Position numbers and translations under genes: made by a program. Shown one piece after another: positions 22,312 to 50,700 of a DNA stretch of 64,000 nt (position 1 is its first letter; the number at the start of each line of letters is the position of its first letter). The notes beneath the pieces are model-generated. The model was not told the origin of the DNA, did not search any database, and saw only the letters and a list, made by a program, of their open reading frames with translations. Source of the stretch: Alphaproteobacteria bacterium (lineage in GTDB: Bacteria; Pseudomonadota; Alphaproteobacteria; JANSWW01); contig JANSWW010000010.1 of assembly GCA_024743275.1 (NCBI GenBank), positions 145,728-209,727 of the forward strand. Reading direction: 5' to 3'.

Positions 22312-22335
22312 ACGCCGCCACCACCCCGGAGGCGC

Positions 22336-23967: not shown

Positions 23968-23994
23968 CGGCGGAGCTTCTTGACTGGTGTTTTC

Positions 23995-24981: not shown

Positions 24982-25005
24982 CTGCGCCTCTTCACGTCCC
25001 CCTGG

Positions 25006-26214: not shown

Positions 26215-26227
26215 GCCATGGGCTCGT

Positions 26228-27496: not shown

Positions 27497-27600
27497 GAAG
27501 ACGCCTTGACGCAAACGGACGGACACGCAACAGAAAAACAGCACCGGCGGGTCGGTTTGACTACCCGACCCGCCGGATGCAAAAGCTGGCTGGGAATGCC

Positions 27601-29728: not shown

Positions 29729-29756
29729 GACATTCTCCAGAATTCTAATAAGTGCC

Positions 29757-30809: not shown

Positions 30810-32185
30810 CAGGGCGCCTGGAACCCGTCCTCGAAGGTGTCGATCACCGGATCGACGAAAAACCGTAACGCCGTCCGTTCACCGACCTTAAACAGCACCT
30901 CGGCATTCATGCCAGGCACGACGCGGTGGTTTTCGACGAGCTTCATCTGGTCCTCGTCGACCCGGACCTGGGCCAAATAGTATCGCCTGCCCCGTCGTTC
31001 GTCCTCGATGATATCCGCCGACACCGATATGACCGACCCATGGAGGATGGGCGTCCGCTTCTGGGCCTTGAGACCGCCCGCGAAGATGAACTTCACCTCC
31101 GCCGGCATCCCGGGGCGAACGGTTTCGATATCTTTCGGCGAAATCTGAACCTCGACAAGCATCTCCTCGTCGTTCGGGACGATCCACATCAGTTCCTGCG
31201 CCGGTCTGACGACACTTCCTTCGGTATGCACCGCGAGGTCGATGATTCTACCCGAATGGGGGGCCCGAACATCCGTCCGCCCGAGCCGCTGATGGGCCAC
31301 CACCAACTGCTGTCTGATTTCCTCAATGCTCTCGCGGGAAGACTGAAGTCGCGAAAGCTGTTCGCTCCGGCGTCTCTGCTTCAGTTGCATCGCCTGCATG
31401 CGGGCCTCGCCGATCTGGACCTGCGAGTTCGAGATATCGGCCTCGTTCGCGCCGGCCTGGCCTTCCAGAGCCGCGGCCTGTCGTTCCAACGCGAACACGC
31501 GGGTCCGCGACACATGCCCCTTATCCAGAAGCTGACGCAGACCGTTCAGTTCCTCGGTAATCAACCGGTACTGCTCTTTTTGGGCATCGTTCTGGGCAAC
31601 GATCCCTTCGATCCGTTTCTCAAGCTGAACGACCCGTTGAGCGAGGATTTCGAGCTCCCCCTCCAATTCGGCCTCTCGGGACTCGAACAAGTCCTGCTGA
31701 TCGGCCATAAGCCCCGCGACCTTTGGGTCGTCGGCCCGCTCCAGCAATGCGTCGGGAAAGGAAATCGCCGACGCGCCCGCCAATTCCGCCACGAGTCGGG
31801 CTTCCTGCCCCAGTGCGAGATCAAGCCGATTGCGCAGGGTGCTGATGTTTGCTTCGATCTCGGTGCGATCCAACTGGATGAGAAGATCGCCTTTTTCGAC
31901 CGCCTGATCCTCCTCGATATACACTTTGGAGACGATGCCGCCGTCGAGATGGTCCACCACCTGCCGCTCGGTCTCGATCTTCAGCGTACCGGCGGCCGTG
32001 ACCCCGCGCGCCAGGTCCGCGATGGCGGCCCAGGCTCCGAAGCCGAAGAACATTGTCAAGATCACCGCGACACCGATCCAAACCGGCCTTCTTGGATCCA
32101 CGCGGGATTTACGGCGTTCCGACGCCGCCGATTCCAGTGACTTCAGGATGTCCCGCCGGGACGTCGTATCGAGCGCTACCGCCAT
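30809..32185 (-). CDS. Type I secretion system membrane fusion protein (HlyD family periplasmic adaptor), system 1.
   Basis: One N-terminal transmembrane segment, a long coiled-coil region and the C-terminal motif GMPAEVLFKVGERTAL..F..P typical of HlyD/PrtE. The start overlaps the ABC stop codon (TAATG). Confidence 0.9.
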   Translation of the reverse strand: MAVALDTTSRRDILKSLESAASERRKSRVDPRRPVWIGVAVILTMFFGFGAWAAIADLARGVTAAGTLKIETERQVVDHLDGGIVSKVYIEEDQAVEKGDLLIQLDRTEIEANISTLRNRLDLALGQEARLVAELAGASAISFPDALLERADDPKVAGLMADQQDLFESREAELEGELEILAQRVVQLEKRIEGIVAQNDAQKEQYRLITEELNGLRQLLDKGHVSRTRVFALERQAAALEGQAGANEADISNSQVQIGEARMQAMQLKQRRRSEQLSRLQSSRESIEEIRQQLVVAHQRLGRTDVRAPHSGRIIDLAVHTEGSVVRPAQELMWIVPNDEEMLVEVQISPKDIETVRPGMPAEVKFIFAGGLKAQKRTPILHGSVISVSADIIEDERRGRRYYLAQVRVDEDQMKLVENHRVVPGMNAEVLFKVGERTALRFFVDPVIDTFEDGFQAP

Positions 32186-33957
32186 TACTGCCCGCCCCCC
32201 TCATTGGTTAGCCGGTTGTCGTCGCCTTCTTCCGGGAGCTTTGCGTCGCCGTTATCGGCGGTGATTTGAGGCCGTTTAACCGCCCCTAACAGACCCGGCA
32301 TGACTTCACCCGCGGGCCCGAAGCGCTCGACATATCCACCTCTAATGAACATCAGCTTGTCCATTGTTCGCAGCATCTGCGGCGTATGTGTGGCGATGAT
32401 CACCGTCACACCCTCTTTCTTGAGATCGTTGAGCGCACTCAGGAGCGCGCTGGTTCCTTCTCCGTCCAAATGGGCGTTGGGTTCGTCGAGGACAACAATC
32501 TGCGGATTGTCATAGAGTGCCCGGGCTAGACCGATGCGCTGCCGCTGGCCGCCGGACAGAAGGTGGCCGAACTCCCCGACATCGGTCTGATAGCCGTTGG
32601 GAAGCGCGGTGATGAGATCGTGGGCCTTGGCGCGCCCCGCCGCCTCGATGATCTTCGCGTCGTCCGCCTCGCCCAATCGAGCGATGTTCTCGGCGACGCT
32701 ACCGACAAAGAGTTCGACATCCTGCGGCAGATAGCCGATGGCGGAGCCGATCTGATCCTGATCCCAGGTCTTGATGTCGGCCCCGTCTATTCGAATGACG
32801 CCGCTGGCGGGCGCCAGGCCGCCGATCAGTAGTTTCAGCAAAGTGGATTTGCCTGCGCCGCTCGGTCCGACAACGCCCAGTTGCTCGCCGGGCTCCAGCT
32901 TGAAACTGACACGGCGGATTATCGACGGGCCGCCTTTTGGCCCGTAGACCACCTTTGAGAAATCGATCGCCCCCTTAACCTCCGGCAGCCTAACGGCTTC
33001 GCGATCCTCCGTGAAGTTGTCGAGCAAGTAACGAATCCGGCGGTACGAGTCCTTCGCCACAAGAACCTGCGGCCAGGAGGCGATTCCCATCTCCAAAGGT
33101 CCAATGGCGCGTGACAGCAGGATATTCGCGGCGATCATGGCCCCGGGAGAAATCTCCTGCATGACAGCGTAGTAGGCGCCGATCCCAAGCACACCGATCT
33201 GCATCAGAAAGCGCAAGGTCGTCGTGGCGGCCCCCGCCATCCCCTGGCGAATCGCCCCGTCGTCCTGCAATTCAACCGCGTCATCATGTTGGCGCAGCCA
33301 GCGATGCCGCAAATGCCCCAGCATGCCCATCGAGCCCAGGGCGTCGAGGTTGACGAGGCTGCGCTCGACCAAGCGGGACGCATTGCGTTGCTGCTTCAAC
33401 CCCATTTCCGTGGGTCCACGCACCAGCCGATCGGAGAAAATGCCGATCGCGGCAATGATCAGAGACCCGATCAGCACGAACAAGCCGATCACCGGATGGA
33501 TCATGAAGATGATCAAAAGGAAGAAGGGGGACCAGGGCAGGTCCAGGATTGCGGTCACCGACCGCCCGGAAATGAAATTGCGCAGGAAATAGACGTCCTG
33601 GATAGCCTGAGACGGATAAATCTCAGGGGCCGTCTTCTGTGCCTTGAAGATCGACTCGAAGACCCGGCCGGCAAGCAGATAGTCGATCCGGCCGGCAATC
33701 GAAACCAGGACCCGGGACCGGACCGCTTCCAAAATGCCCAGAACCACCAGAATACCAACCGTCACAATCGTTATGACAATCAGGGTGTCGACACTGCGGG
33801 TAGACAGAACTCGGTCGAAGATCTGGAGCATGTACACGGGTACAGCCAGCATCGCCAAGCTGATGAAGAAACTGAAGACGAAGACGTAGGCCAACGAACC
33901 GCGTATGGATTTTATAACGGCCGAGGCTTCACTGACCGCATTCTTTGCTTTCGCCAT
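32185..33957 (-). CDS. Type I secretion system ABC transporter (fused permease and ATPase, PrtD/AprD-like, no C39 peptidase domain), system 1.
   Basis: The N-terminal motif VPVYMLQIFDRVL is typical of the PrtD subgroup. Walker A GPSGAGKST, signature LSGGQRQR and Walker B IVVLDEP are present. Confidence 0.92.
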   Translation of the reverse strand: MAKAKNAVSEASAVIKSIRGSLAYVFVFSFFISLAMLAVPVYMLQIFDRVLSTRSVDTLIVITIVTVGILVVLGILEAVRSRVLVSIAGRIDYLLAGRVFESIFKAQKTAPEIYPSQAIQDVYFLRNFISGRSVTAILDLPWSPFFLLIIFMIHPVIGLFVLIGSLIIAAIGIFSDRLVRGPTEMGLKQQRNASRLVERSLVNLDALGSMGMLGHLRHRWLRQHDDAVELQDDGAIRQGMAGAATTTLRFLMQIGVLGIGAYYAVMQEISPGAMIAANILLSRAIGPLEMGIASWPQVLVAKDSYRRIRYLLDNFTEDREAVRLPEVKGAIDFSKVVYGPKGGPSIIRRVSFKLEPGEQLGVVGPSGAGKSTLLKLLIGGLAPASGVIRIDGADIKTWDQDQIGSAIGYLPQDVELFVGSVAENIARLGEADDAKIIEAAGRAKAHDLITALPNGYQTDVGEFGHLLSGGQRQRIGLARALYDNPQIVVLDEPNAHLDGEGTSALLSALNDLKKEGVTVIIATHTPQMLRTMDKLMFIRGGYVERFGPAGEVMPGLLGAVKRPQITADNGDAKLPEEGDDNRLTNEGGGQ

Positions 33958-34020: not shown

Positions 34021-34710
34021 TCAGGCCGCCTGCAATCGGCATTTTTCCGCCTGCCAGAGGTCCGCGTAGTCTACACTCTGCCAGTCCTTAAACCAAGGGC
34101 CGCCGCGGGTATAGTGGATCGCCTTCGGATAGCCCTCCTCCGGCCGTGGATAAAAGCCTTCCAACCAGTTCCAGGTGTAGGGCAAGTCGCCGATCAGGTC
34201 GTCCTCCAGCCACATGAAACGGTGGAGGAACATGCCGGACTCCGAGTTGACCACGTCGGGGGTCAGAATCCGGTTCTTCGGATGACCGGCATTATACAAG
34301 ACCATGCTCGACCAATTCTTCCGGGGATAGACCGTCTGGACCTGGCCATCCATCTTGGTCGTCTCCTTCGGGGTATAGTCGTGCTGGACGCACATCAGCG
34401 CCTTGGTCTCGTCGGCGAGCGCGAAAAGCTCCGCGACATCGGCGGTGTATAGAAAATCGCAATCGACGAAAAGGGCCCAGCCCTCGAAATTGGCCATATA
34501 GGGGGTTAGGAACCGGGTGAAGGAGAATTCCGTAGAGGAGAGCTTGTCCTCCGGGCGGGTATAGAGCCCTTGCTCACGCAGGTCTTGCTGCTTCAAAGGC
34601 ACGATGTCCAAAGGCACGGAGGCATGGCGACGAAGCGAACTGACGCAGACGTCGTAAGCCTCTTCCTCACGGCTGTCCCAGCCGATGAAAACCCGCAATC
34701 GGTCGGTCAT
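34021..34710 (-). CDS. GT-A fold glycosyltransferase, GT8-like. Paralog of 1968-2696.
   Basis: Starts MTDRLRVFIGWD at the ATG at 34710, preceded by GGAG. DxD-type motif ALFVDCDF. Clear block-wise similarity to the 1968-2696 product. Confidence 0.7.
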   Translation of the reverse strand: MTDRLRVFIGWDSREEEAYDVCVSSLRRHASVPLDIVPLKQQDLREQGLYTRPEDKLSSTEFSFTRFLTPYMANFEGWALFVDCDFLYTADVAELFALADETKALMCVQHDYTPKETTKMDGQVQTVYPRKNWSSMVLYNAGHPKNRILTPDVVNSESGMFLHRFMWLEDDLIGDLPYTWNWLEGFYPRPEEGYPKAIHYTRGGPWFKDWQSVDYADLWQAEKCRLQAA

Positions 34711-34833
34711 AATCCAATCTCCATCGCTTCCCTCTCGCCGCGGCGGCCAACCGCCGAACCGAGGTTTTCCAGTAACATCTTCGGATGTACGAGGCCGGTA
34801 GTGATATCCGTCCCATCCCGGCAATTCAAGCCG

Positions 34834-37800
34834 TCAGTACAGTATCTTTCTAACTTTGGACATCATACCTGACCAGTCCCCCATTCGGGACTGTCGGATC
34901 AGGGTCATATTGGGATACCACGGGGTGTCGACGCGATCCGTGAACCACCGCCAGTCGACCGCCGGCTGGATCATATTGACGACCTTTTGGCCCAGGGCCC
35001 CCGCCAAATGCGCCGTTACATTGCTGACGGTCACCACCTGATCGACAGCGCAACACAAGGCGGCCAGTCCATCGATGTCCATGGTTGGATCCAAATCGTC
35101 GAAGACCATGGGCCGGTGCCCGGTCTCGGCCTCGAAACGATCCAGGTCCGCTTGCGCCTCGCCATACTGAAACGAGACCAGGACGACGTCTTTCGCGGCG
35201 AGAAGGGGGGCGAATTCAAGGATATCCAAAGACTTGCCAGGTCCTTGTTTCAGATTCCCACTGCGCCAGGAAATCCCGACAAACCGCTTCCCGGCACCGT
35301 GGGCCTCCTCGAGCCTGCGCCTGTAACCGTCGACCTTTTCGCGGTCCGGCACAAGAAAGGCGCGCCTTGGAAAATCGCTCTCCGCCCGCCGGAACATGGC
35401 GAGCAAGCTCCCCATCGGCATTTCAACATCAGCCTCGCCGATATCCCTGGACGGACCGTTCGGATCGGACAAGGGCACAACGGTCGCCGAGGGGAAGGAG
35501 CGGTCAAACAAGGGGACCAGCCGGACATCGCAATCGATCACCGCCCTCTCGGCGACCTTCAACGCATCGGGCAGGCAGGAGGCGTACATGATGTGATCGC
35601 CCACCCCCTGCTCCGACCAGAAATAGACCGATCTTCCCTCCTCGCCGTGCCAACGCGGCAACCCGGCTCCGCGGTTGCCGATCCTCTGCTGCGGCGCGGT
35701 CAGACGGTGGTCGAAATAACGCCAGCCCTCTTCCAGCTTGCCGGCGGCGAGGAGACAGATGGCGAGGTTATGGGCCGCGTCCCGATCCTCGGGCCGCAAC
35801 GCCAAGACACGCCGGATCAGCGCTTCGGCGGCCGCATGGTGACCGCCATACCGCAAGAACGTGGACAGGTTCAGAAGGATCTCGGCCGTCGCGGGCGCCT
35901 GCCTAACCAGCGTGATCGCCCGCGCGAAGGCTTCGTAGGAACCTGGATGGCGCGGCGCATTGGTGATGACGGTGCCGCGAACGGCCGTATCGCCTGGGAT
36001 TAAGGCCGACGCCATGGCAAGCCCTAGGTTCCATCGTTTCTCGGGAATCAAGACGCGAAGCGACTCACCCAAATTCTGAAAAACCTGTCCATCGCCGGCC
36101 GCGACACCCAGACGCATTACATGGTGCGCCTGTTGGGCCGCCGTCATAAACGCGCCACGCGCCAGACTAAGGGCCAGGCCCCATTTCCGCGGCAAGGGGT
36201 CGCCCGGTGCCAGAGCCGTCGCCAACCTGTAACACGCCGCGGCACGCCGGAGCGGCGCTTCCCCCCGGAAACCTGCGCTGCGCGCCATGCGCTCAAGAGC
36301 GCCGCCGACCTGGCACACCGCTCGGGGGTTTCCGGGCTCGATGGCGGCACCGAACGCGGCCCGGCTCACGGCCAGAACGGGCGATGCGCCGACAAGGGGA
36401 GCGGCCGCCTCCTCAAGAGTTCGCAACGCATTGGCGGGGGTGAATTCGGGAACCAGACCGACATCCCGGGTTAAGGCGTCGGCAACGGCGGCTTCCTGCG
36501 GGCGGCGTGTGCCGGGCAGGGCACCGGAAGCCCGCACCGCCATGGCGACCGACTGAGCATTTCCGGCGACGGCGACGACCAGCCGATACAACGGTTTGCG
36601 GGCCGTGGCCTCGCGCCCCGCAAGGCGCTCCACCTGGGCAACCAGCCGCTTCGCGACCCCCAACAGGCCGCTCCGATACGCCATCCCGACAAGCTCGCTC
36701 CAATTCTGCTCCAAGGCGGGGTCGAGCGCCGTGCCGAGTTCGAAGAGCCGCCGGCCGGCTCCGGGATAACTGCGGTCGGCAAAACGGGCGCAATTGTAAA
36801 GTAGCCGGGAATGGTTGGGCGCTGCCCGGACCGCCACCGACGCCCAGATATGCGCGTGTCCGAATTTCTTCAGGCCTTCATAGGCGACGGCGAGGTTGGC
36901 GTAGGCGAAGGGATCAAATCGCGAGGCCTCGACGACCTCGAATAACCGGTCGACGGCCTCCTCGGTGCGGCCTTCCGCAAGCGCCGCCAGTCCTCGATCG
37001 CGCAACCGGTCCCGCTCCTCCGGCGCTCGGAAGAGCGGTTGGCGCCCCGCCATTGAGTCGGCCGCGGCACGCGCCGCACGCCGGAACGCGCCCGACCAGT
37101 CCCCCGGGACCGCCTGGCGGACGACGGTGACGGAGGAATACCAGGGACAACTGGTGCCGGTGAGCTGCCATCGCCAGTCGGGAACGCTGTGCAATACCAA
37201 GGTGGTCGGCACCCCGAGCGAACCAGCCACATGGACCGTGGTGTTGGATGTCGTCACCACATGGTCGAGCGCCGCGATCTGTCCTGCGAAGTCCTTGATG
37301 GATTGGAACTGGTTGATCCTGGGGTCGTTGAAGATCCGATGCCCGGTACGGGTCTCGAACCGCTCCAGATCAAGCTTCACGTCGCCGTATTGCAGATTGA
37401 TCAGCTGAACGTCGGGCAGGGCCGCGACCGCTTCCAGCCCGTCGATGGGCGCGGTCTTGAACGCGCCGGTCACCAGCCCCTTGCTGCGCCAGGAAACGCC
37501 GACCAGCCGCTTGCCCGGAAAGAGTTTTCGGTATTCCCGGCCCAACTGCTCCGGCAATTTCTGGGGCGCGACGATCAAGGATGGTCTCGGACGCACGTCG
37601 CCGACCAGCGTAAGCCCGAAAATGAAGATCAGATCGGCAAGGGCGATATCGCACACGATATCCGACTTCAACAGCCTCGGATTGCGGGGCTTGGAGCGCG
37701 CGACGATTTCGAGCTGCGGGAAGCGATGGCGCAGAAAGGGCACCAACCGTTCCGAGATCTCGATGATCGGGTCCGGACAGATGTCGAGGACCTCGGGCAA

Positions 37801-38802
37801 CAGGCTTGCGAACATCAACTCGTCGCCGACCCCTTGTTCGCCCCAAATCAGCAACCGCCCGCCGGTAACAGGTTCGCCCTGCCACCGGGGGAGCCCAAGG
37901 TCCTGATGCCCCAGATCGACGACCCCGGTCACGCCGCGTTTGGAGTAACCGGCCCTCCCGTCCTCCAACCGCCCCAGCGTCAACTGCATGATCCCCCAAT
38001 TGTTCTCATTGGCGGCGATGGGATTGAGCTTGTAGGAACGGCGGTAACAGATTGAGGCCGCGATGAATTCTCCGCGCTCCTTGTACCAGTTACCGACATT
38101 GGTCCAAGCGTTCCCGAAGCCCGGATCGATGGCGATCAGCGCCTTGTAGAAATACATCGAGGGTTCGAGATATCCCGCCCGCTGATAGGCATTGGCCGTA
38201 TTCACCCAACAGGAGGTGTTCGACGGGGCCATGGCAATGGCGCGGAGGAGCAAACCGACCTTGTCGACGGAGCCGCCGTAATTGGTCAACGTTGTCCCGA
38301 GATTGTAATGCGACCGATAATCTTGAGGGGCGAGAGCCACCAGACTTTTGTATAGGGATAACTTGAGATCTTCGCTGAGCTCGCCGACGAGATTACCGAG
38401 GTTCATCCGCGCGCCTTCCCGCCGGGGCGCAAGCGCAAGCGATTTGCAGTAGGCCGGAAGACCGCGTCGGTCGCCAATCACGGCCAAGACATTGGCGATG
38501 TCGGCGTAGATACCCCCATTGGCCGGCCGCAACGCGCAGTCGAGCAGCAGACACCGCAACGCGGGTTTTTGGGCGCCTAGAGTATTCAAGACCAATGCGG
38601 CCTCGAAAAGTGCAAGATGGTTTCCCGGCAAACGGGCAAGGGCCGCCGCGTGGAGCCGAAGTCCGAGGGTGAGCGCGTCCGAATACGACGCGCACAACGC
38701 CGCCAGGAAGGTCGGACCGAAGGCCCCGGGATGTTCCGCGCAATAGCGCCACGCAAGTCGGGTGAGCTGCGGGCCACGACCCGTCCGGATGAGCCGTTGC
38801 AC
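34834..38802 (-). CDS. Large TPR-repeat protein carrying two TPR plus GT9-like (heptosyltransferase-fold) glycosyltransferase modules in tandem.
   Basis: Two copies of the catalytic-module signatures are present. Copy 1: LPRWQGEP..LLIWGEQGVGDELMF with SNTTVHVAGSLGVP...DWRW. Copy 2: LPRWHGEE..YFWSEQGVGDHIMY with SNVTAHLAGALG...DWRW. Each module is preceded by TPR-like helical repeats. The GTG start is uncertain. Confidence 0.8.
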   Translation of the reverse strand: MQRLIRTGRGPQLTRLAWRYCAEHPGAFGPTFLAALCASYSDALTLGLRLHAAALARLPGNHLALFEAALVLNTLGAQKPALRCLLLDCALRPANGGIYADIANVLAVIGDRRGLPAYCKSLALAPRREGARMNLGNLVGELSEDLKLSLYKSLVALAPQDYRSHYNLGTTLTNYGGSVDKVGLLLRAIAMAPSNTSCWVNTANAYQRAGYLEPSMYFYKALIAIDPGFGNAWTNVGNWYKERGEFIAASICYRRSYKLNPIAANENNWGIMQLTLGRLEDGRAGYSKRGVTGVVDLGHQDLGLPRWQGEPVTGGRLLIWGEQGVGDELMFASLLPEVLDICPDPIIEISERLVPFLRHRFPQLEIVARSKPRNPRLLKSDIVCDIALADLIFIFGLTLVGDVRPRPSLIVAPQKLPEQLGREYRKLFPGKRLVGVSWRSKGLVTGAFKTAPIDGLEAVAALPDVQLINLQYGDVKLDLERFETRTGHRIFNDPRINQFQSIKDFAGQIAALDHVVTTSNTTVHVAGSLGVPTTLVLHSVPDWRWQLTGTSCPWYSSVTVVRQAVPGDWSGAFRRAARAAADSMAGRQPLFRAPEERDRLRDRGLAALAEGRTEEAVDRLFEVVEASRFDPFAYANLAVAYEGLKKFGHAHIWASVAVRAAPNHSRLLYNCARFADRSYPGAGRRLFELGTALDPALEQNWSELVGMAYRSGLLGVAKRLVAQVERLAGREATARKPLYRLVVAVAGNAQSVAMAVRASGALPGTRRPQEAAVADALTRDVGLVPEFTPANALRTLEEAAAPLVGASPVLAVSRAAFGAAIEPGNPRAVCQVGGALERMARSAGFRGEAPLRRAAACYRLATALAPGDPLPRKWGLALSLARGAFMTAAQQAHHVMRLGVAAGDGQVFQNLGESLRVLIPEKRWNLGLAMASALIPGDTAVRGTVITNAPRHPGSYEAFARAITLVRQAPATAEILLNLSTFLRYGGHHAAAEALIRRVLALRPEDRDAAHNLAICLLAAGKLEEGWRYFDHRLTAPQQRIGNRGAGLPRWHGEEGRSVYFWSEQGVGDHIMYASCLPDALKVAERAVIDCDVRLVPLFDRSFPSATVVPLSDPNGPSRDIGEADVEMPMGSLLAMFRRAESDFPRRAFLVPDREKVDGYRRRLEEAHGAGKRFVGISWRSGNLKQGPGKSLDILEFAPLLAAKDVVLVSFQYGEAQADLDRFEAETGHRPMVFDDLDPTMDIDGLAALCCAVDQVVTVSNVTAHLAGALGQKVVNMIQPAVDWRWFTDRVDTPWYPNMTLIRQSRMGDWSGMMSKVRKILY

Positions 38803-38879
38803 GACCGGTTTGCTGATTTCGCCTTGTATGGAGACCTCCGTCGGCGCACGCGCGGATGTTTGCGTTTACCGGCCCCGTA

Positions 38880-41708
38880 CTACTCGGCGGTGATCAAATC
38901 CGCAAGGTCGCTTTCCTCGACACCCTCCTCCATAACCACGCCCTGTTCCTTCAGATCGTGATCATAGTTCGGATGGCGCAGGACGCTAAGATCGCCGGCC
39001 ACCAGCTTGCCCAGTTCGCCGCCCACCGTCTCGACGACGTCCGTCCAGGTCCTCGGATTGCTTTTTCGGAAAATCCGCATGCCGGGATACCAAAGGGCGT
39101 CGTCGCGGCCGACCGTCCACCGCCAATCCGAGACGAACGGAATCATCGTCCAACAGGGCACACCCAGCCCGCCGGCGGTATGCACCCCGGCATTGGTCGC
39201 CGAAATGATCAGATCGCAGGCGGCGATTTGGGCGGCGCTGGCGTCGAGATCGGTCATCGGATCGATTTCCGGATCGTAGATGATGTCGATGCCGTGCTGC
39301 TTGTTGGCGTCCTGGATCACCGGCTCGACCGGTCCGTATTGGATGGAGACGAATTGGATATCGTCGCCATGGCGGAAGATCGGCTCCCAATACCGGAGCG
39401 GAACAGACCGAAGCTCCTGGCGCTTCGCGAGCTTGCCGCCGTTCCAACCGATTCCGACGATCCACTTCTTCTTCGGGTTTCGATAGCGTTCGCGAAGTTG
39501 CGCGACCCGGTCGGGGTCGGCGGTGAGGAAAGACTTCTTCTGATTCGAGAAATCCTTCACCTTGCGTCTGAGAAACCGCGCGATACTGGCGCAGGGCAAC
39601 TGAAGGTCAGCAGACTGCATGACTTGGGGCGGCACCTTACGCATGCAATGAACTTCCGCATCGGGGAAGCTTCTTTCGATCAAGGGTAACATGCGGTACT
39701 CGGCTTCGATGAAGACATGCTTGGCTCGGCCGATGATCTCATGCGCCATGCTGAAAAACATGAGATGGTCGCCGACCCCCTGTTCCGGCCACAGAACAAC
39801 CGACTTGTCGGACAGATCCTCCTCACCGTCCCACCACGGCATCGTGAACGGACGTTTTTCGCCGCGCGCCATCCGGAGGACCTCGAAGCCCATTTCGTAA
39901 AGATCAAACCCTTCGCCGAATTCGCCGATGCCCAGGTGGAACAGCGCACAGTTGAACGCCCGTCTCTTGGTGTATTTCAGGTCCTTTGCCCGGCGGAAAA
40001 ACGCCAATGCAAGGGCTTGATATTGCTGTCCCTTCAATGCCGCACCGATGAAGTCCAGCAGACTCGCGCTCGTCGGCGCCTTACGATAGGCGTGCTCGAA
40101 ACAATGGAGCGCGTCGGCAATGTTCCCCATGCCGAGGTTGACTTCGCCGCGGGCGACCAGGGCCATTGGCGCGTCCGGTTGCAGTTCGACAAGACGGCTG
40201 GTAACCGCATCGGCCTCTTCCCATTCGGCGAACTCAATGAGGACCTTGGCGAGGGATTGAACCGCGAAGGCGCTATCCGGGTCCTCCTCCACCGCCCTGC
40301 GATACCATTTAATGGCTTCCTTTTTATTGGCCTGTTCGGCATAGGCCTTCCCGATGCGGACGATGAGATCCTTGTTGTCCGGCTTTAGGTCGTAGGCGAT
40401 TTCGTAATGCTTGATCGCCTCGTCCTGACGCTCCGACTGGACATACACGGTCGCCAACCGGGAATGGGCCAAGTAGTAGGTCGGGTCCGCCTCGATCGCT
40501 TCCAACAGAAGCGGCTCGGCCTCTTTGATTCGTTCCTGTTGAATAAGCAACGCGGCCCTTTGCGCCAAGACCGCGACGCCGCGCGATTCGGAAGGGACCC
40601 TTTCCATCAATTCCTGTGCCCGATCCGCCTCGCCGAGGCGAGATGCGACATCACTGGCCAGGATGAAGGTCCTGGGACTTTCCGGCTCGATTAAAACGAG
40701 GCGGTCCGCGATGGCACCGGCGGACTCGTTCCGTCCCCGCATCGTAAAATAAACACCGAGATTATAGGTATAGGTGCCATGGCCTGGATTGAGGGCTGTC
40801 GAGATCGACATACAGTTCTCAGACAGCGCCTTGAGGTCCCCGCCGGCCAAAAACTGTCCCAAGACATCCCACGACCCTTCGGCGTTCGGGCGGTATTGCA
40901 GAAACCGGAACATATCCTGGGCGCCGTCCAAATAAAGGCCCAGCTTCATTTTCGAGATCGCACGCACTTCGGCGACGGTTTCGGCCGGTAGGGTCCGTTC
41001 CTTTTCCGCGGTGTCGACCAAGGCCAGGGCGGTCTCGTAGTCCTTGAGCTGCATATGAAGATCGACTTTTCGTCGGACGGCGCCCTGGCTCCACGGGTGA
41101 CAGGTATAATAATGGTCGGTCAGCCCCCTAACCGTATCGATGTCCCGCTTCGCCTTGGCGATTTCGATGAGGACCTCAAGATTGCCGGGAAGGAAGTCCT
41201 TCCGCGCATGTGCCTTTCTTGCGGTCGCTTCCGCCTTGTCGATCTGACCTGTCTGGAATTGGATCGCCGCTAGGTTGGCGAGCGCTTCGGCGTTGGAGTT
41301 GAGCTTCGCGAGATGGGTTTCGGCATAATCTAAACCGGTTTTAGGATCCTGCTGGAAGAGTGCGACCGCGAGCAGAACCGATCCGTCCTCGTAATCCGGA
41401 TGCTCCGTGAGGACCTTCCGGAGCATTTCGATCGCCGTCGTAACGTCGCCTTTCCTAAGACGCTCCATGGCGCGTTCCCGAATGATCTCCGGATGGGCGC
41501 TATCGAGCCTCGCCCCGAATTCGCAGAATTCTCGCGCTTTGGAAAGCGCTCCGATGGCGCTCAGGACCCGGGCGGAACGTGCCGCCCGTTCGGCGGTTAG
41601 AGCGTCGATGTCGGCGGGATTGACGCCGTTGAACATGTTGAGGGCGGCTCGCCAATTCCCCTTTTCGAATTGGGCATAGGCGTCATCGATAACGGAACCC
41701 GGAACCAC
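38880..41708 (-). CDS. TPR-repeat protein with one C-terminal GT9-like glycosyltransferase module.
   Basis: About 560 aa of TPR repeats are followed by MPWWDGEE..VVLWPEQGVGDHLMF and ATNAGVHTAGGLGVP...DWRW. The GTG start is uncertain. Confidence 0.8.
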   Translation of the reverse strand: MVPGSVIDDAYAQFEKGNWRAALNMFNGVNPADIDALTAERAARSARVLSAIGALSKAREFCEFGARLDSAHPEIIRERAMERLRKGDVTTAIEMLRKVLTEHPDYEDGSVLLAVALFQQDPKTGLDYAETHLAKLNSNAEALANLAAIQFQTGQIDKAEATARKAHARKDFLPGNLEVLIEIAKAKRDIDTVRGLTDHYYTCHPWSQGAVRRKVDLHMQLKDYETALALVDTAEKERTLPAETVAEVRAISKMKLGLYLDGAQDMFRFLQYRPNAEGSWDVLGQFLAGGDLKALSENCMSISTALNPGHGTYTYNLGVYFTMRGRNESAGAIADRLVLIEPESPRTFILASDVASRLGEADRAQELMERVPSESRGVAVLAQRAALLIQQERIKEAEPLLLEAIEADPTYYLAHSRLATVYVQSERQDEAIKHYEIAYDLKPDNKDLIVRIGKAYAEQANKKEAIKWYRRAVEEDPDSAFAVQSLAKVLIEFAEWEEADAVTSRLVELQPDAPMALVARGEVNLGMGNIADALHCFEHAYRKAPTSASLLDFIGAALKGQQYQALALAFFRRAKDLKYTKRRAFNCALFHLGIGEFGEGFDLYEMGFEVLRMARGEKRPFTMPWWDGEEDLSDKSVVLWPEQGVGDHLMFFSMAHEIIGRAKHVFIEAEYRMLPLIERSFPDAEVHCMRKVPPQVMQSADLQLPCASIARFLRRKVKDFSNQKKSFLTADPDRVAQLRERYRNPKKKWIVGIGWNGGKLAKRQELRSVPLRYWEPIFRHGDDIQFVSIQYGPVEPVIQDANKQHGIDIIYDPEIDPMTDLDASAAQIAACDLIISATNAGVHTAGGLGVPCWTMIPFVSDWRWTVGRDDALWYPGMRIFRKSNPRTWTDVVETVGGELGKLVAGDLSVLRHPNYDHDLKEQGVVMEEGVEESDLADLITAE

Positions 41709-41738: not shown

Positions 41739-41774
41739 CAAAAAATTGGGGAGGGATGCAAGGCATCCCTCCCC
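41739..41774 (-). terminator. Rho-independent terminator downstream of the giant RTX gene.
   Basis: 12-bp stem GGGGAGGGATGC / GCATCCCTCCCC (41748-41759 and 41763-41774) with a 3-nt loop. On the minus strand it is followed by AATTTTTT. Confidence 0.8.
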
Positions 41775-41798: not shown

Positions 41799-44700
41799 TT
41801 AGCTGAGGGTGAAGAAGCCGTTACCGTTATTGGTAACCGTTCCGTCGAAGCCACTCAACTGGACGACATAGGTGTTGCTGATACCGCCGCCGAGAACCAG
41901 AAGGTCGTTGGCGCTATCGAAGATGAAGATACCACCCGCCGTGGCGTTCGCCGTCTGGGTCAAGCCAGCCGAGAAGGCCGACGCGACGTTCGTCTGAGCG
42001 ACTTCGGCCGAAGCCGCGCCACTGAAGGCGGTGACCACACCGGCCACACCGGAGAAGTCAAGGACATCGCCGGCGGTCGCCCCGGAGATCACCTGAGCAC
42101 TCAGCGCCGTGAAGGCGGAGAGGACGCTCTGCAGCGAGCCACCGGAGGTAACGGCGATGGCGGTGCTGCCCGACAGACCGACCCGATACTGGACGTCCGA
42201 CCGGTTGAAGCCCGTGAACCCAGATACGCTGATCTGGAGATCCTGAGCCTGCACCAGGCCGTTACCGTCGACATCGATCGCCACCCGGTTGCTGCCCGTG
42301 AGGAACAGCATTTCACCCTGCGCCCCGGACAGGAGCGAGATACCGTTGGCGGCGTCCGTGGCATCACCGACATCCGTCAGGTTGAAGTTGACGCCGGCGA
42401 CATCCGGGAGGGTGATGATCAACTCGTCGGCGCTGGCCGAGAAGTCGGTGATCACGTCCGTGTTGGTGCCGTTGGACGGGCTGGCCGTGGTGTTCCCCGT
42501 GAAGGAGAAGCTGTCGTTGCCGTCACCACCGGTCAGGGTATCCGCACCGGCTTCACCGACGAGGCTGTCGGTACCGGACCCGCCGAGGATGCTGTCCGAG
42601 TTGGAACCGCCGAGCAAGGTGTCGTTGCCGAGACCACCGATCAGGGTTTCAACACCGGCACCACCGACGAGGCTATCGGCCCCGGCACCGCCGGTGACGA
42701 GAACGGTGGTTGCCGTCGTCGCTTCGTTGGAGCCCGTGAAGGTGAAGGCCGCCGACTGAGCGCTGGCGTCGACAGTGAGGGAGGCCCCGCTGACCACGTT
42801 CGCATCGTTGGTCACCAGGGTAAGGGCGCCGCCAGAACCGGTGATCACGATGTTCTCGATGGCCACCACGCTGGCACCCAGCGTCAGCGTACCGGTGCTG
42901 AAGCTGGAGGTGTTGAAGACCAGCGTATCGGTGCCGCCATTCCCGTCGACATCGTCGGTCGTGGAGAACACGGCCGTGTAGCCCGTCAACGTGCCGCCGA
43001 CATTCGCGAAGGTGAAGGTGTCGTTGCCGGCACCACCATCGAGGCTGTCCGCGGTAAGGTTACCCGTCGTGATGTTGAGCGAGTTGGCCGTGGAGAGGTC
43101 CACCCCATTCACAACCAGCCCACCCGACGTGGCACCCGACACATCGCCGCGATCCTCGATATCGGCGATCGTCAAGGACGTCACACCGAGGGTCGTCATC
43201 ATCCCGTCCGTGACCGTGATCTGCGACGCGGAGGCCTGGCCGAACTGCAGGGTTTCAATCCCGCTGATCGTCCCGAGCATGCCGGCCGAGATCGAGAAGT
43301 TGGACGCGGAAGCACCAGAGAACCGAAGGACGTCGCCCGCCGTGGCGCTGTTCGCCCCACCGACGATGGTTGTCGCCGTGGTGAGAGCCGCCGCGGTCAC
43401 GACCTGGAAGATGTCGTCACCGTCGCCACCAATCAGGCTATCGGCCGAATTGACGTTGAACAGGTCGTTTCCGGCTCCGCCGATCAAGGTGTCGGCACTC
43501 GCACCACCCGTGAAGGTGTCGTCACCGGACCCGCCGACGACGCTGTAGATGCCGTTCGCGGTTTCAGCCGCACCGTTGAAGGTGAAGGCGGCGGACTGAG
43601 TAGACGCGTCGACCGAAACGGTCGCGCCCGTGGCGGCGTTCGCGTCGTTGGTAACGAGGGTCATCGCACCACCGGAACCGGTGATCACAATGTTCTCGAT
43701 GGCAACCACGCTAGCACCCAACGTCAGCGTACCGGTGCTGAAGCTGGTGGTGTTGAAGATCAGCGTGTCGGTGCCGCCATTGCCGTCGACGTCGTCGTTG
43801 GTCGAGAACACGGCCGTGTAGCCGGTCAACGTTCCGCCGACATTGGCGAAGGTGAAGGTGTCGTTACCGGCACCACCGTCCAGGCTATCCGCGGTCAGGT
43901 TCCCGGTGGTCACGTTGACAGCATTGGCCGTCGTCAAGGCGGACGCCGCAACCGTCAAGCCGCCCGAGGTGGCGGTCGACAAATCACCACGATCTTCGGT
44001 GTCGTTGATCGTCAGGGTAGTAAGGCCAAGGGTGGTCATCATGGTGTCGGTGACCGTGATCGACGCCGCGGACCCTTGACCAAACTGAAGCGTCTCGATG
44101 CCGCTGACCGAACCGAGCATCCCAGCCGTGATCGCGAAGTTGGACGCTGAGGCACCGGAGAACAGCAGGACGTCACCCGCCGTGGAGCTGTTCGCCCCAC
44201 CGACGATCGTGGTCGCGGTCGTAAGAGCGACGCCGGTCACGACCTGGAAGACGTCGTCGCCGTCGCCACCAACAAGGCTGTCGGCGGAATTGACGTTGAA
44301 CAGATCGTTTCCGGCCCCACCGATCAAGGTATCCGCACTGGAACCACCCGTGAAGGTGTCGTTCCCGGAACCGCCGGTCACGCTGTAGACACCCAGAGCG
44401 GTTTCAGCGGCACCGTTGAAGGTGAAGGCGGTTGCCAGGTTGGAGGCGTCGACGTTCAAGACACCGCCGGTGGTGGCGATATTGGCATTGTTGGTGACCA
44501 GGGTCATCGACCCGCCGGTGCCGGTGATTACGATATTCTCAATGGCGACCACGCTGGCCCCCAGCGTCAGCGTACCGGTGCTGAAGCTGTTGGTGTTGAA
44601 GATCAGCGTATCGGTACCGCCGTTACCGTCGACATCGTCGTCGGTTGAGAACACGCCCGTATAACCGGTCAACGTGCCGCCAACATTCGCGAAGGTGAAG

Positions 44701-47489
44701 GTGTCGTTGCCAGCACCGCCATCGAGGCTGTCGGCGGACAAGTTGCCCGAGGTGATCGAAAGGCTGTTGGCCGTTGTGACGGAGGCACCGGCGACCACGA
44801 GACCACCGGTAGCGTTCGCTGTGTCGCTAATGTTGATGGTCGTGACGCCAAGCGCGGTGAACGTCGAATCGTTGACGGTCACCGTGTTGAGCGTCGAAAC
44901 ACCGCCGAACTGGAGCGTTTCAACTTCGCTGATGTTCGAGAAGGCACCTGCGGTGAAGGTGTAGACGGACGCGCCCGAGAAATCCAACACGTCGGTCCCA
45001 CTGCCGCCGACAACGGTATCGGACGTCAGTTCGTCCGTGGAGAGCACGAACACATCGTTCCCGTCGCCACCGACGAGGCTGTCGGACCCCGTCTGGCCGG
45101 CGATTGTGTCGGCACCGGCACCACCAAGGATGGTGTCGTTGCCGGCCGCACCGGTCAGGTTGTCGTCCCCGTCACCGCCGACGATCGAGTCGGCGCTGGT
45201 GCCGCCCTGAACCTGGTCGTTGCCGCCGCCGGACGAAATGGTGTTGCCGCCGGAACCACCGAGGATCGAGTCCGCGCCGTCGCCGGTCGTGATCGACTGG
45301 GTCGTGCTGGCACCCCGAACGATGAAGGAGTTGGAGCTGCCGGTGGAATCGAGGTTTTCGAACGCCTGCAGGATCGGACCATCGCTACCGGTCAGCTCGC
45401 CACGGGTCGTGTCCCCGTCGAGATCGGACTGGTTGATGTTGCCGTTGTTGACAGCGGCAGCACCGGCGGAAACCGCCGTGACGGTGCCGTTGACGGTGAC
45501 GGTCGTCCCGCCCGAACCGCCGGTGAAGTCGACCACCTGGACGGTGGACGTGGTCGGAAGCAGGATCAGGGTGTCGGTCCCGGTCCCGCCCGAAGCGTTG
45601 GACTCGGCGCCGCGGATCGTGATGGTGTCGTCCCCGGCACCACCGTCGATCTGGTCGGCACCGCCGCCGCCGTCGATCAAGTCGTTGCCGCCGGCACCGC
45701 TCAGCGTTTCCGCGGCCGTGGAGCCGATCAGCGTGTCGTTGCCCGACGTACCGCCGGTTTGGATGATCGCGGTTACCGTGACCGAAGCGGTCGAGGTGGC
45801 GCCGAAGCCGTCCGTCACCGTGTACGTGAACGTGGCATCGCCGGCCTGGGACGGCGTGAAGGTAATGGAGAGACCGTCGGAGGCAATCTCGGCGACACCA
45901 GTGGACGGCTGGCTAACCGAAGAAACCGTCAAGGTCTGGTTGGCACCCCCGGTGATGTCCGCATCCGTGTCGTTGGACAGAACGTTGATGGTGGTCGCCT
46001 GACCGACCAGGATGCTGCCCTGGGAATCGGCGGTGGCGACCGGCGCCGTGTTGGTCACGTCGATGCTGGCGGTCGCTTCGACAGAATCCGTGCCGTCGGA
46101 GACGGTGAAGGTGAAGCTATCATCGGCTGCCTGACCGGCGTTGACCGTGTAAGACGCGGTCCCGTCGCCGTTGTTGACGACCGTCCCGCTCGAGGCCGCG
46201 CCGGTGGTGAACGTCAGCGTGTCGCCGTCCGGATCGGTCGCGAAGGTATTGAGATCGATGGTCAGCGTGTTACCGGCGACCACGGTCGCGGCACTGCCGG
46301 CCACCGTCGCCGGCGCGTCATTGACGGCCGCGAGGGTGATGGTGGCGGTCTGAGCGGCGGAATTCTGATTGCCGTCGTTCGCCGTGAACTGGAACGACGC
46401 CGTGCCGTTGAAATCGGCGGTCGGCGTGAACGTGAAGGTACCGTCGCTGTTGACCACGGCGGCGCCGCCGGTGGCGGAACCGTCGACCAGCGCGAAGGTC
46501 AGGGTATCGCCCTCGGTGTCGGTCGCGGTCAGCGTGCCGGTCGCGGTCACGTCTTCCGTTCCGGAGACGGAGAACGCGGCGGCGGTCGGGGCGGCGTTGA
46601 TGACCACGGAGACGGAACCGGTGTCCGTGCCACCGTTGCCGTCGCTGACGACATAGGTGTAGGAGCCGGAGGTCGAGCCGTCGGCCGGCGCGAAGACGAC
46701 GCTGGAGCCGACCAGACCGACCTCACCGCCCGTGGCGTTGCCGACGGAGGAGATGGTCAGGGTATCGCCATTGGCGTCGGTGTCGTTCGACAGAAGAGCG
46801 CCGGAGGAGGTGACGATCGTGGCCGAACCGGGCACGCCGACAACCGTATCGGCGCCGGCGACCGGAGCAGAATTGAAATCGCCGGCGTCGGCGACCGCGA
46901 CCGGGTTCACGAAGGCCCGACCTTCGGACTGACCGAACGCCTGGAAGTGGGCCAGCGCGGTGGCGGTGGTGATCCCGGCGGTGACCAGGTCGGGGTTGAA
47001 GGTCAGGTAGTCGTCGACGTCGAAGGAGAGCAAACGACCTTCGGAACTGCCGAACGTGTTGTAATGCTCAAGCGCGTTCGCCGTCGTGATCCCCGCGGAA
47101 ACGAGATCCGGGTTGGCGTCGAGGTAGAGCTGTGCGTTGAACTCGACCAGACGATTCTCGGACGCACCGAACGCAACGAAGTGCGCCAGGGCGTCGGCAT
47201 CGGACAGGCTCGCCAAATCGGCGTTGGCGGCCTTGTACTCCGTGGCGTCGAAGTTGAACTTACGCCCTTCGGACCGGCCGAAGGCGTTGAAGTGCGTGAG
47301 CGCGTCGGCGTCGGACAGGCTGGCCAGGTCCGCATTCAGCGACTTGTAGACGGTAGCGTCGAACGCGAGAGCGCGCCCTTCGCTAAAACCAAACTGGGCA
47401 TAGTGAGTCGCAGCAGTCGCCTCCGTTACGCCGGCCGTCACCAAATCAGGATTGGCGGCCAGGTAGGAGGCAGCGTTGAACGTTGTCAT
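41799..47489 (-). CDS. Giant (about 1.9k aa) RTX adhesin or S-layer-like protein. Domain order: N-terminal 5x ANPD module, cadherin-like/VCBS-type Ig repeats, RTX blocks, then three roughly 280-aa tandem units.
   Basis: Composition is rich in T/G/A/S/D/N/V. Repeats of the type NDAP...D.DGD.LT resemble cadherin-like or tandem-95 repeats. There are many GGxGxD nonapeptides and no signal peptide. The ATG at 47489 is preceded by GGAG; the ORF track starts at 47504. Confidence 0.9.
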   Translation of the reverse strand: MTTFNAASYLAANPDLVTAGVTEATAATHYAQFGFSEGRALAFDATVYKSLNADLASLSDADALTHFNAFGRSEGRKFNFDATEYKAANADLASLSDADALAHFVAFGASENRLVEFNAQLYLDANPDLVSAGITTANALEHYNTFGSSEGRLLSFDVDDYLTFNPDLVTAGITTATALAHFQAFGQSEGRAFVNPVAVADAGDFNSAPVAGADTVVGVPGSATIVTSSGALLSNDTDANGDTLTISSVGNATGGEVGLVGSSVVFAPADGSTSGSYTYVVSDGNGGTDTGSVSVVINAAPTAAAFSVSGTEDVTATGTLTATDTEGDTLTFALVDGSATGGAAVVNSDGTFTFTPTADFNGTASFQFTANDGNQNSAAQTATITLAAVNDAPATVAGSAATVVAGNTLTIDLNTFATDPDGDTLTFTTGAASSGTVVNNGDGTASYTVNAGQAADDSFTFTVSDGTDSVEATASIDVTNTAPVATADSQGSILVGQATTINVLSNDTDADITGGANQTLTVSSVSQPSTGVAEIASDGLSITFTPSQAGDATFTYTVTDGFGATSTASVTVTAIIQTGGTSGNDTLIGSTAAETLSGAGGNDLIDGGGGADQIDGGAGDDTITIRGAESNASGGTGTDTLILLPTTSTVQVVDFTGGSGGTTVTVNGTVTAVSAGAAAVNNGNINQSDLDGDTTRGELTGSDGPILQAFENLDSTGSSNSFIVRGASTTQSITTGDGADSILGGSGGNTISSGGGNDQVQGGTSADSIVGGDGDDNLTGAAGNDTILGGAGADTIAGQTGSDSLVGGDGNDVFVLSTDELTSDTVVGGSGTDVLDFSGASVYTFTAGAFSNISEVETLQFGGVSTLNTVTVNDSTFTALGVTTINISDTANATGGLVVAGASVTTANSLSITSGNLSADSLDGGAGNDTFTFANVGGTLTGYTGVFSTDDDVDGNGGTDTLIFNTNSFSTGTLTLGASVVAIENIVITGTGGSMTLVTNNANIATTGGVLNVDASNLATAFTFNGAAETALGVYSVTGGSGNDTFTGGSSADTLIGGAGNDLFNVNSADSLVGGDGDDVFQVVTGVALTTATTIVGGANSSTAGDVLLFSGASASNFAITAGMLGSVSGIETLQFGQGSAASITVTDTMMTTLGLTTLTINDTEDRGDLSTATSGGLTVAASALTTANAVNVTTGNLTADSLDGGAGNDTFTFANVGGTLTGYTAVFSTNDDVDGNGGTDTLIFNTTSFSTGTLTLGASVVAIENIVITGSGGAMTLVTNDANAATGATVSVDASTQSAAFTFNGAAETANGIYSVVGGSGDDTFTGGASADTLIGGAGNDLFNVNSADSLIGGDGDDIFQVVTAAALTTATTIVGGANSATAGDVLRFSGASASNFSISAGMLGTISGIETLQFGQASASQITVTDGMMTTLGVTSLTIADIEDRGDVSGATSGGLVVNGVDLSTANSLNITTGNLTADSLDGGAGNDTFTFANVGGTLTGYTAVFSTTDDVDGNGGTDTLVFNTSSFSTGTLTLGASVVAIENIVITGSGGALTLVTNDANVVSGASLTVDASAQSAAFTFTGSNEATTATTVLVTGGAGADSLVGGAGVETLIGGLGNDTLLGGSNSDSILGGSGTDSLVGEAGADTLTGGDGNDSFSFTGNTTASPSNGTNTDVITDFSASADELIITLPDVAGVNFNLTDVGDATDAANGISLLSGAQGEMLFLTGSNRVAIDVDGNGLVQAQDLQISVSGFTGFNRSDVQYRVGLSGSTAIAVTSGGSLQSVLSAFTALSAQVISGATAGDVLDFSGVAGVVTAFSGAASAEVAQTNVASAFSAGLTQTANATAGGIFIFDSANDLLVLGGGISNTYVVQLSGFDGTVTNNGNGFFTLS
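42650..45090 (-). repeat. Three tandem 840-843 bp coding repeats (about 280 aa each) inside the giant RTX gene.
   Basis: The segments starting at 42841, 43681 and about 44524 (gtgatcac[g/a]atgttctcgatgg...cagcgtaccggtgctgaagctg...) align with high nucleotide identity by eye. The protein unit runs GGAGNDLFNVNSADSL.GGDGDD.FQVV...GNLTADSLDGGAGNDTFTFANVGGTLTGYT...ENIVITG. Confidence 0.85.
46917..47480 (-). repeat. Five tandem ANPD repeats at the extreme N-terminus of the giant RTX protein.
   Basis: Cores YLAANPDLVTAG, YKSLNADLASLS, YKAANADLASLS, YLDANPDLVSAG and YLTFNPDLVTAG. Confidence 0.8.
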
Positions 47490-47787
47490 GTCAATTCGCT
47501 CCAAGTTTCTTTTTCAGTGTTAGCGAGAAGCCTGCCATGCCCTAGGCACACTGCGACTTCAGGGGTCCCCTAAACGTACCTTTGGCCGTAACCTACGTGT
47601 TCTGCGACCGCGAAACAAGGGACTTTTTAAAGGATTGCGAAGGCTTCACCTTCATAAATGTGGCGGAAATGCATCACATTGACTCGGCCACATGTCGTGT
47701 TGGCGGACGATGCCTCGCCAACCGGGGGAGTGTCGGTGTTAACCTTTCCCCAATTCTCCGATGCGCCGGTGCCGAAGACGGAACCCA

Positions 47788-50621: not shown

Positions 50622-50700
50622 TCATGATGGCCAAAGCCCAAACGCCGAGAGACCGGAAACCTAGGGACCGGAAACCTAAAGAAACGAAACGGGGCCGCTC

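Follow-up and report, generated by a model that had tools for sequence, protein, structure and literature searches.

We analysed a 64,000-nucleotide stretch of an alphaproteobacterial genome (hereafter the window; assembly GCA_024743275.1, contig JANSWW010000010.1, positions 145,728 to 209,727 of the forward strand), in which two adjacent genes encode large proteins, here called A and B, that join arrays of tetratricopeptide repeats (TPRs) to glycosyltransferase-like modules. All coordinates are those of the window, and A, B and the co-directional genes beside them lie on the minus strand. Protein B (38880..41708) is 942 aa long and consists of a TPR array (aa 1 to ~599), a single GT-B module (aa 600-905; 38994..39911) and an acidic tail of 37 aa. 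Protein A (34834..38802) has 1322 aa when read from a GTG start, or 1253 aa as called on the public contig, and is composed of a TPR-like array, module 1 (aa 284-587; 37042..37953), an inter-module TPR-like array (aa 588-1025; 35728..37041) and module 2 (aa 1026-1321; 34840..35727). With a profile hidden Markov model (HMM) built from family members, exactly three modules are found in A and B, with scores of 361-389 bits (389 bits in B, 361 bits for module 1 of A and 372 bits for module 2). Both the open reading frames (ORFs) and the presence of one TPR-glycosyltransferase module in the 942-aa protein and two in the 1322-aa protein, as described in a first-pass annotation of this DNA, agree with these coordinates and with the HMM.

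The two genes belong to a co-directional series that reads, in order, RTX gene, hairpin, B, A, p267, ABC, HlyD, KpsF and sugar genes, with gaps of ≤100 bp or overlaps. At its head lies a gene for a repeats-in-toxin (RTX) protein with cadherin and Big_9 domains (41799..47504; 1901 aa), in which Pfam matches and composition reveal 19 RTX nonapeptides and 25.1% Ser+Thr, and which is the leading candidate acceptor for A and B. Between the stop of this gene and the start of B, we observe a hairpin that resembles an intrinsic terminator (41748..41774, minus strand; 12-bp stem with 9 G-C pairs, followed by a T-run). The gene following A encodes p267 (34021..34824; called as 229 aa from 34710), and 63 bp further downstream begins the gene for an ATP-binding cassette (ABC) transporter of a type I secretion system (T1SS; 32185..33957; 590 aa; Pfam), the stop of which is overlapped by the gene for the T1SS membrane-fusion protein of HlyD/AprE type (30809..32185). 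A KpsF/GutQ isomerase (29757..30809) is identified by Pfam and by NCBIfam TIGR00393 (kpsF; 289.6 bits versus a cutoff of 203.7), and the sugar-pathway genes beyond it (21487..29785) encode an FkbM methyltransferase (also matched by the NCBIfam fkbM family), a 2-oxoglutarate (2OG) oxygenase, two GT4 enzymes, an NDP-sugar epimerase/dehydratase, a radical SAM/SPASM enzyme and a TylF O-methyltransferase. No strong terminator other than that at 41774-41748 was found along the co-directional array; apparently, B, A and p267 share a transcript with the ABC and membrane-fusion genes. No homologue of flagellin, FlaF, FlbT, FlaG or FlaEY was found in the 64-kb window.

The three modules of A and B are 26-34% identical in pairwise comparison and have 49 invariant columns in common. 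Each carries EQGVGD (A322, A1064 and B642), a [ST]N...H.AG.LG block (A519, A1260 and B838, where B reads TNAGVHTAGGLG) and DWRW (A542, A1283 and B861), with a near-fixed spacing of 196-197 aa from EQGVGD to the second block and 23 aa more to DWRW. At least one EQGVGD or DWRW arose in just 85 of 20,000 shuffles of the A and B sequences, and the occurrence of these motifs in the modules is therefore not due to chance. The longer N-terminal motif string of the first-pass annotation holds in part: the block is found in all modules, but its spacer varies from 4 to 7 residues, and module 2 of A is the only one to which the fixed-length string applies. An alignment of 61 family sequences has 14 invariant columns, and none of these is lost in any of the three modules; the near-invariant D48, N240 and H244 and the GALG block are likewise retained. 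With the family-invariant residues thus retained, nothing marks any of the modules as non-catalytic; missing donor-binding residues had been named beforehand as evidence that would count against a glycosyltransferase role. By hydropathy, there is no convincing transmembrane segment in A, B or p267, with the maximal 19-residue Kyte-Doolittle mean being 1.14 in B and 1.26 in p267, and the peak of A (2.38) falling within module 1, in a hydrophobic helix at aa 382-400. On these grounds, membrane-bound enzymes were ruled out.

A TPR or TPR-like helical array precedes all three modules, as had been proposed, although the arrays of A are degenerate by sequence. The array of B is strong, matching many Pfam TPR families across residues ~80-580, while Pfam TPR matches in A are limited to ~150-261, 579-628 and 955-1025. 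In the AlphaFold (AF2) model of A 588-1322, 23 helices of 13-16 aa stand before the module (predicted local distance difference test score, pLDDT, of 40-89), so that the inter-module array is indicated by Pfam, by this model and by the match of the whole unit to SPINDLY and OGT that is described below. In Pfam and NCBIfam scans of full-length A and B, TPR families alone were matched. Direct assignment of the proteins from these databases was accordingly set aside, as the full proteins return only TPRs and the isolated modules at most a sub-threshold GT9 match.

We assigned the modules from AF2 models compared by Foldseek. The model of the B module is confident (pLDDT 88.2, predicted template modelling score, pTM, of 0.86), and module 2 of A is modelled as a high-confidence GT-B domain (pLDDT >90). 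The best Foldseek matches of the B module are GT9 enzymes, namely 3tov (E=2.7e-7), RfaF (1psw; E=4.1e-7) and WaaC (about 1e-5), with query-normalised TM-scores of 0.43-0.55 over ranks 1-7, and module 2 of A superposes on 1psw with a target-normalised TM-score of 0.55. Taken as a whole, the TPR+module unit of A is closest to SPINDLY (8dtf, E=2.8e-10) and to OGT, while its catalytic part is best on GT9. The GT9 family PF01075 matches isolated module 2 of A at 14.3 bits (E=0.025), under the gathering score of 22 bits, and gives no match at E<=10 for module 1 of A or for the B module; some relatives of the modules carry precomputed PF01075 matches. Searches of PDB sequences with the modules returned nothing significant, the family profile reached 1psw only at E=0.22, and a profile that included the TPR columns was swamped by TPR proteins, with matches confined to TPR residues. 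In the weak profile alignment to RfaF, the Asp of EQGVGD aligns with D13 of the SWVGD motif (a segment of 1.7 bits), and SNTTVHxAGALG aligns with NDSGLMHVAAALN, the GT9 C-terminal motif (10.1 bits). A difference is seen at this second motif, where A and B have S-N-T-T-V-H in place of the canonical GT9 D-S-G-x-x-H, or S/T-N-x for D-S-G.

Judged from these models, the modules of A and B have a GT-B fold that is closest to GT9 heptosyltransferases, which is what the first-pass annotation had read from the motifs; structure prediction, which it had suggested as a check, returned the GT-B/GT9 fold for both the B module and module 2 of A. The likeness to WaaC and RfaF/WaaF consists of the best structural matches and of the weak alignment of EQGVGD and the C-terminal motif. 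The differences from GT9 are the sub-threshold Pfam score, the replacement of D-S-G by S/T-N-x, the fusion to TPRs and a genomic context of exported proteins rather than lipopolysaccharide (LPS) core genes, and no heptose-pathway gene was recognised among the window genes scanned. A second precedent raised in the annotation, the TibC/Aah family (bacterial autotransporter heptosyltransferases, BAHTs), is borne out in that TibC (4rap) is Foldseek rank 10 for the B module (E=1.5e-4). These enzymes likewise have a GT9-like GT-B domain and glycosylate, in the cytoplasm, an exported protein that is encoded next door. The resemblance is at the level of fold, with no detectable sequence similarity; BAHTs lack TPR arrays, and there is no autotransporter in the 64-kb window. 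In OGT and SPINDLY, as in the architecture of A and B, a TPR superhelix delivers protein substrates to a GT-B catalytic domain. OGT, SPINDLY, HMW1C and EtpC, however, have a GT41 catalytic domain, whereas the catalytic part of A and B superposes best on GT9. We rejected GT41 membership of A and B, as there is no PF13844 match and the likeness to SPINDLY and OGT stems from the combination of TPRs and GT-B.

The family to which these modules belong is very large: a cutoff of E<=1e-3 returns 40,366 representative clusters, E<=1e-10 leaves 34,607, and E<=1e-30 leaves 17,197. It occurs in Rhodospirillales, Burkholderiales and Acidobacteriota. Most often, a member has ~500 aa and combines a single TPR array with a single module. 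Among the closest matches, proteins with 2-4 modules dominate, and the first 150 places of the representative-library search are taken by proteins with 2-8. The tandem fusion seen in A is therefore common in the family, and the earlier view that it is unusual does not hold. In some sources, members are named [quoted passage not shown] or "ADP-heptose:LPS heptosyltransferase". The modules of A and B fall in what we term the N-type subfamily, in which their nearest relatives are 35-41% identical; the sister subfamily, which we term D-type, has the C-terminal motif D-[ST]-x-x-x-H, in which the Asp is kept, and is thus more GT9-like. Several multi-module relatives (P0131, P0135, P0141, P0142, P0147 and P0155) carry further fused domains, including FkbM or class I methyltransferases, GT4, sulfotransferase and, in a single instance, a Ser/Thr kinase.

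We surveyed the genes around other family members at 45 loci, each 8 kb or longer, that came from a scan of metagenome data, from look-ups of contigs and from plasmid records. Flagellin, FlaF or FlbT lies beside the module in 8 of the 45, and a ninth locus (L010) has FlaF by Pfam; the flagellin-linked members come from several different metagenomic loci and one genome assembly. When neighbours were clustered without bias, the TPR-module family itself came first, followed by homologues of p267 (8 loci), by flagellins, FliF and FliS (5 each), and by FkbM methyltransferase, FlaF and FlbT (4 each). The two-module protein P0143 is a direct neighbour of flbT, flaF, three genes for flagellin, flaG and a FlaEY-type gene, an arrangement of the Caulobacter flagellin-locus type, while P0122 adjoins flaF. 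The best-scoring relative in the representative library, P0161, has four modules and is encoded between a flagellin gene and FliD/FliS, which are followed by a GT8 protein (45% identity to p267, E=3e-61), a GT4 and one more TPR protein. The set of N-type TPR modules, GT8 and GT4 is thus common to the window and to the P0161 flagellar island, which has flagellin, FliD and FliS in place of the RTX and T1SS genes of the window. From the neighbours of the family and the P0161 enzyme set, we recognise an FlmG-type flagellin glycosylation toolkit. Genes with uninformative surroundings were also encountered, as for P0012 and for the isolated members of Azospirillum oryzae, A. lipoferum, Granulicella and A. 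humicireducens.

The survey also bears on p267. It has no Pfam match itself and contains a DxD-type motif (FVDCDF), and its homologue in locus L056 matches PF01501 at 25.1 bits (cutoff 24.3). Together with the recurrence of its homologues beside family members, these features identify p267, at the level of sequence, as a putative GT8-like GT-A glycosyltransferase and a conserved partner of the TPR-module family.

D-type members, on the other hand, are found beside other kinds of exported protein. As the Ralstonia and Burkholderia plasmid records are unannotated, we called and scanned their ORFs by hand. On the Ralstonia solanacearum T12 megaplasmid (NZ_CP022775.1, 6582-12828), genes for an autotransporter, a TPR-sulfotransferase and a stand-alone module follow one another in this order. 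Within the listed Ralstonia megaplasmid records (15 Ralstonia records in all), the module matches once, at a comparable position of the record, and the neighbours are those of NZ_CP022775.1 alone. In Burkholderia arboris (NZ_CP101525.1, 6047-24829), a gene for a TpsA exoprotein of >3900 aa, which has a two-partner secretion (TPS) domain and is a relative of EtpA and HMW1, is immediately preceded by three TPR-module genes in tandem. HMW1C and EtpC are cytoplasmic enzymes that glycosylate TpsA adhesins and are encoded in operons, and the Burkholderia arrangement recalls hmw1ABC and etpBAC, with another glycosyltransferase family in their place. Finally, on plasmid p1 of Azospirillum sp. TSH100 (NZ_CP039640.1), four members flank a gene for a 6622-aa Ig-like, RTX-like protein with 28.8% Ser+Thr, and the vicinity also encodes GT2, GT4, an FkbM methyltransferase and two class I SAM methyltransferases. 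Because these replicons carry many copies of the module, this last adjacency could have arisen by chance.

The closest functional precedent for A and B is FlmG of Caulobacter crescentus (CCNA_01524) and Brevundimonas. FlmG has a TPR domain at the N-terminus and a GT-B domain of ~290 aa at the C-terminus (PMC7591256), of which the former binds the flagellin acceptor and the latter sets the specificity for the donor, pseudaminic (Pse) or legionaminic (Leg) acid (PMC7591256; bioRxiv 10.1101/2022.03.25.485807). A and B repeat this TPR plus ~290-aa GT-B unit, and FlmG modifies its protein in the cytoplasm before export, which is also the role that we propose here. The differences are that three units are present in two polypeptides and that these are encoded in a T1SS/RTX operon, with no flagellar genes in the window. 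Residues 301-314 of FlmG (FQIPGVRWSGQDLR), rebuilt from published primers, contain the WxGxxL signature of the family at the published boundary of the glycosyltransferase domain. The module family thus probably includes FlmG, as compared through architecture and this primer-derived peptide. An exact match to a 22-nt flmG primer in locus L002 (a contig labelled Arthrobacter cavernae PO-11) was dismissed as chance, as a stop codon follows directly. The first-pass annotation had cited FlmG and OGT as examples of TPR arrays fused to GT-B enzymes, and both the SPINDLY/OGT match of the whole unit and the flagellin, FlaF, FlbT, FliS and FliF neighbours of the family uphold this comparison. Overall, A and B are very probably cytoplasmic, FlmG-like protein glycosyltransferases with a GT9-like GT-B domain.

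What such enzymes would act on in this organism is a question for gene order and analogy. As proteins secreted by T1SSs bypass the periplasm, any glycosylation of them must take place in the cytoplasm, as it does for flagellin. We propose that A and B act in the cytoplasm as soluble, FlmG-type protein O-glycosyltransferases. The TPR array of each unit would capture the export substrate while this is still unfolded, and the GT9-like GT-B module fused to the array would move a nucleotide-activated sugar onto Ser or Thr. The island would supply three TPR-module units and the GT8-like p267, the two GT4 enzymes could extend the glycan, and the neighbouring genes may make or tailor the sugars. Putative acceptors are the 1901-aa Ser/Thr-rich RTX protein and perhaps further RTX proteins encoded in the island, and the three TPR-module units could differ from one another in the RTX protein that they recognise or in the sugar that they add. 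We consider the RTX protein the most likely acceptor because B, A and p267 are apparently co-transcribed with the T1SS genes and lie directly downstream of the Ser/Thr-rich RTX gene. A parallel is provided by hlyCABD operons, in which a modifying enzyme is encoded in the operon and a terminator or attenuator separates the substrate gene from the transporter genes, just as a terminator-like hairpin and genes for candidate modifying enzymes follow the putative substrate gene in the window. The acyltransferase HlyC is a functional analogue only, in that it modifies a T1SS substrate in the cytoplasm before export; it differs from A and B in fold and in chemistry, which is Lys acylation rather than glycosylation. 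[quoted passage not shown] Among the scanned window ORFs, we saw no NeuB-type synthase, PseI, CMP-sugar synthetase or Pse/Leg biosynthesis genes. A UDP-glucose dehydrogenase and a membrane PglF/PseB-like dehydratase are also encoded in the island, the latter scoring 167.6 bits against a PseB cutoff of 407.75.

The RTX gene order, the hlyC analogy and the D-type relatives that adjoin exported substrates argue, by comparison with these systems, for glycosylation of T1SS/RTX substrates by A and B in the cytoplasm before export, and we regard this proposal as the best reading, at about even odds. It had already been suggested in the first-pass annotation that the neighbouring RTX proteins are the acceptors, and the position in the operon and the lack of flagellar genes in 64 kb speak for that suggestion. 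The comparative data weigh against it. A T1SS pair or RTX protein is present in 0 of the 45 other family loci while flagellar genes are present in 9, those N-type members with an informative context are flagellar, the nearest relatives (35-41% identical) are flagellin-linked or orphan, and the non-flagellar precedents for exported proteins belong to the D-type sister subfamily. We found no close orthologue of A or B (best match 27% identity) in which the T1SS linkage could be compared. Our view of the genome spans 64-74 kb, and flagellin genes may lie elsewhere in it; the sugar genes downstream could serve a polysaccharide; and the activity, acceptor and donor are all predictions. Re-targeting of an FlmG-type toolkit (TPR-GT9-like units, GT8 and GT4) from flagellin to T1SS substrates is, in our estimation, plausible if tentative.

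These same observations lend themselves to other explanations. In one of them, A, B and p267 would be ordinary FlmG-type flagellin glycosyltransferases, with the flagellin encoded elsewhere and the position in a T1SS island incidental, for example through rearrangement or a shared sugar supply. The family context is overwhelmingly flagellar (flagellin, FliS, FliF, FlaF and FlbT recur, as at P0143 with flbT-flaF and its three flagellins, at P0122 beside flaF and at P0161 between flagellin and FliD/FliS), the window modules are N-type like the flagellar relatives, and FlmG is the sole member-like enzyme with a demonstrated function (PMC7591256). However, the flagellar examples sit within a few kb of flagellin, whereas the 64 kb studied here contain no flagellar gene and B, A and p267 are wedged between a T1SS substrate gene and the ABC and membrane-fusion genes, in one co-directional array with no strong terminator between. 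We consider a flagellin acceptor unlikely on balance, if a serious contender.

An action on glycolipid or polysaccharide, such as LPS core, O-antigen or capsule, that anchors or accompanies an RTX/S-layer-like protein would make the TPR arrays scaffolds rather than acceptor-binding devices. The closest solved folds are indeed LPS heptosyltransferases, the island encodes a KpsF/GutQ isomerase of the Kdo pathway, two GT4 enzymes, the PglF/PseB-like dehydratase and UDP-glucose dehydrogenase, and some family members, for example in Azospirillum, are near O-antigen-type genes. In Caulobacter, moreover, the S-layer T1SS genes neighbour O-antigen genes that are needed for S-layer anchoring, and the S-layer protein RsaA binds O-antigen (PMC6978808). 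Yet long TPR arrays bind the acceptor protein in FlmG, OGT and SPINDLY, the neighbours of the family are exported proteins with no LPS-core genes among them, and the modules score under the Pfam GT9 threshold with S-N-T-T-V-H replacing D-S-G-x-x-H, which together render this explanation improbable. It is very improbable that any of the three modules is a pseudo-enzyme, lacking catalysis and confined to binding or scaffolding. Degenerate copies are frequent in multi-module enzymes, and module 1 of A is the most divergent, being 25% identical to the B module and containing the unusually hydrophobic helix noted above, but the 14 invariant columns, D48, N240, H244 and GALG are kept in this module as in the others.

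Reports of glycosylated RTX and S-layer proteins (SwmA, oscillin) go back decades, and a review of RTX proteins in which the glycosylated examples are documented names no enzyme for them (PMC3034196); nor did we find a glycosyltransferase named for T1SS or RTX substrates in the literature searched. If A and B do glycosylate RTX proteins, they would form, as far as we are aware, the first dedicated glycosyltransferase system for this class. The locus offers a concrete, clonable candidate system in which substrate, enzymes, sugar genes and exporter lie within ~26 kb. The enzymes themselves are members of a known, mostly uncharacterised kind, and it is the T1SS/RTX setting that is atypical for the family. 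FlmG-type enzymes have been called narrowly distributed in the literature and confined to Caulobacterales, whereas our survey suggests a module family that is very large, often multi-modular and spread over several phyla. Genes for flagellins, autotransporters, TpsA adhesins or RTX proteins adjoin those of its members, which suggests a general class of substrate-adjacent protein glycosyltransferases that act before export.

Outside the operon, the island contains another T1SS ABC/HlyD pair and a further five RTX proteins (4117-17693 and 48702-52074). Of the latter, one combines a subtilase with a P-domain, one a choice-of-anchor-I domain with a 5'-nucleotidase, one has a cyclophilin domain, one a CAP domain, and the last, of 400 aa, has RTX repeats only. 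Several long ORFs have no Pfam or NCBIfam match (52897-55191 (+), 56036-58647 (+), 3012-3992 (-) and 18364-19443 (+)); the one of 764 aa has an Arg/Pro-rich tail and may be a spurious ORF of high GC content. The N-terminal ~200 aa of the 1901-aa RTX protein consist of repeats of ~37 aa with the pattern F-[DN]-x3-Y-L-x-A-N-P-D-L...H-[YF]-x2-F-G-x2-E-G-R, and one copy of the same repeat closes the cyclophilin-RTX protein (12877-14715 (-)). We set aside the idea that these "ANPD" repeats are demonstrated acceptor sites, as the evidence points neither way. On the opposite strand, among the RTX genes, is a gene for a BNR_2 (sialidase-like) protein (11876-12880 (+)), which is curious given the link between FlmG and ulosonic acids.

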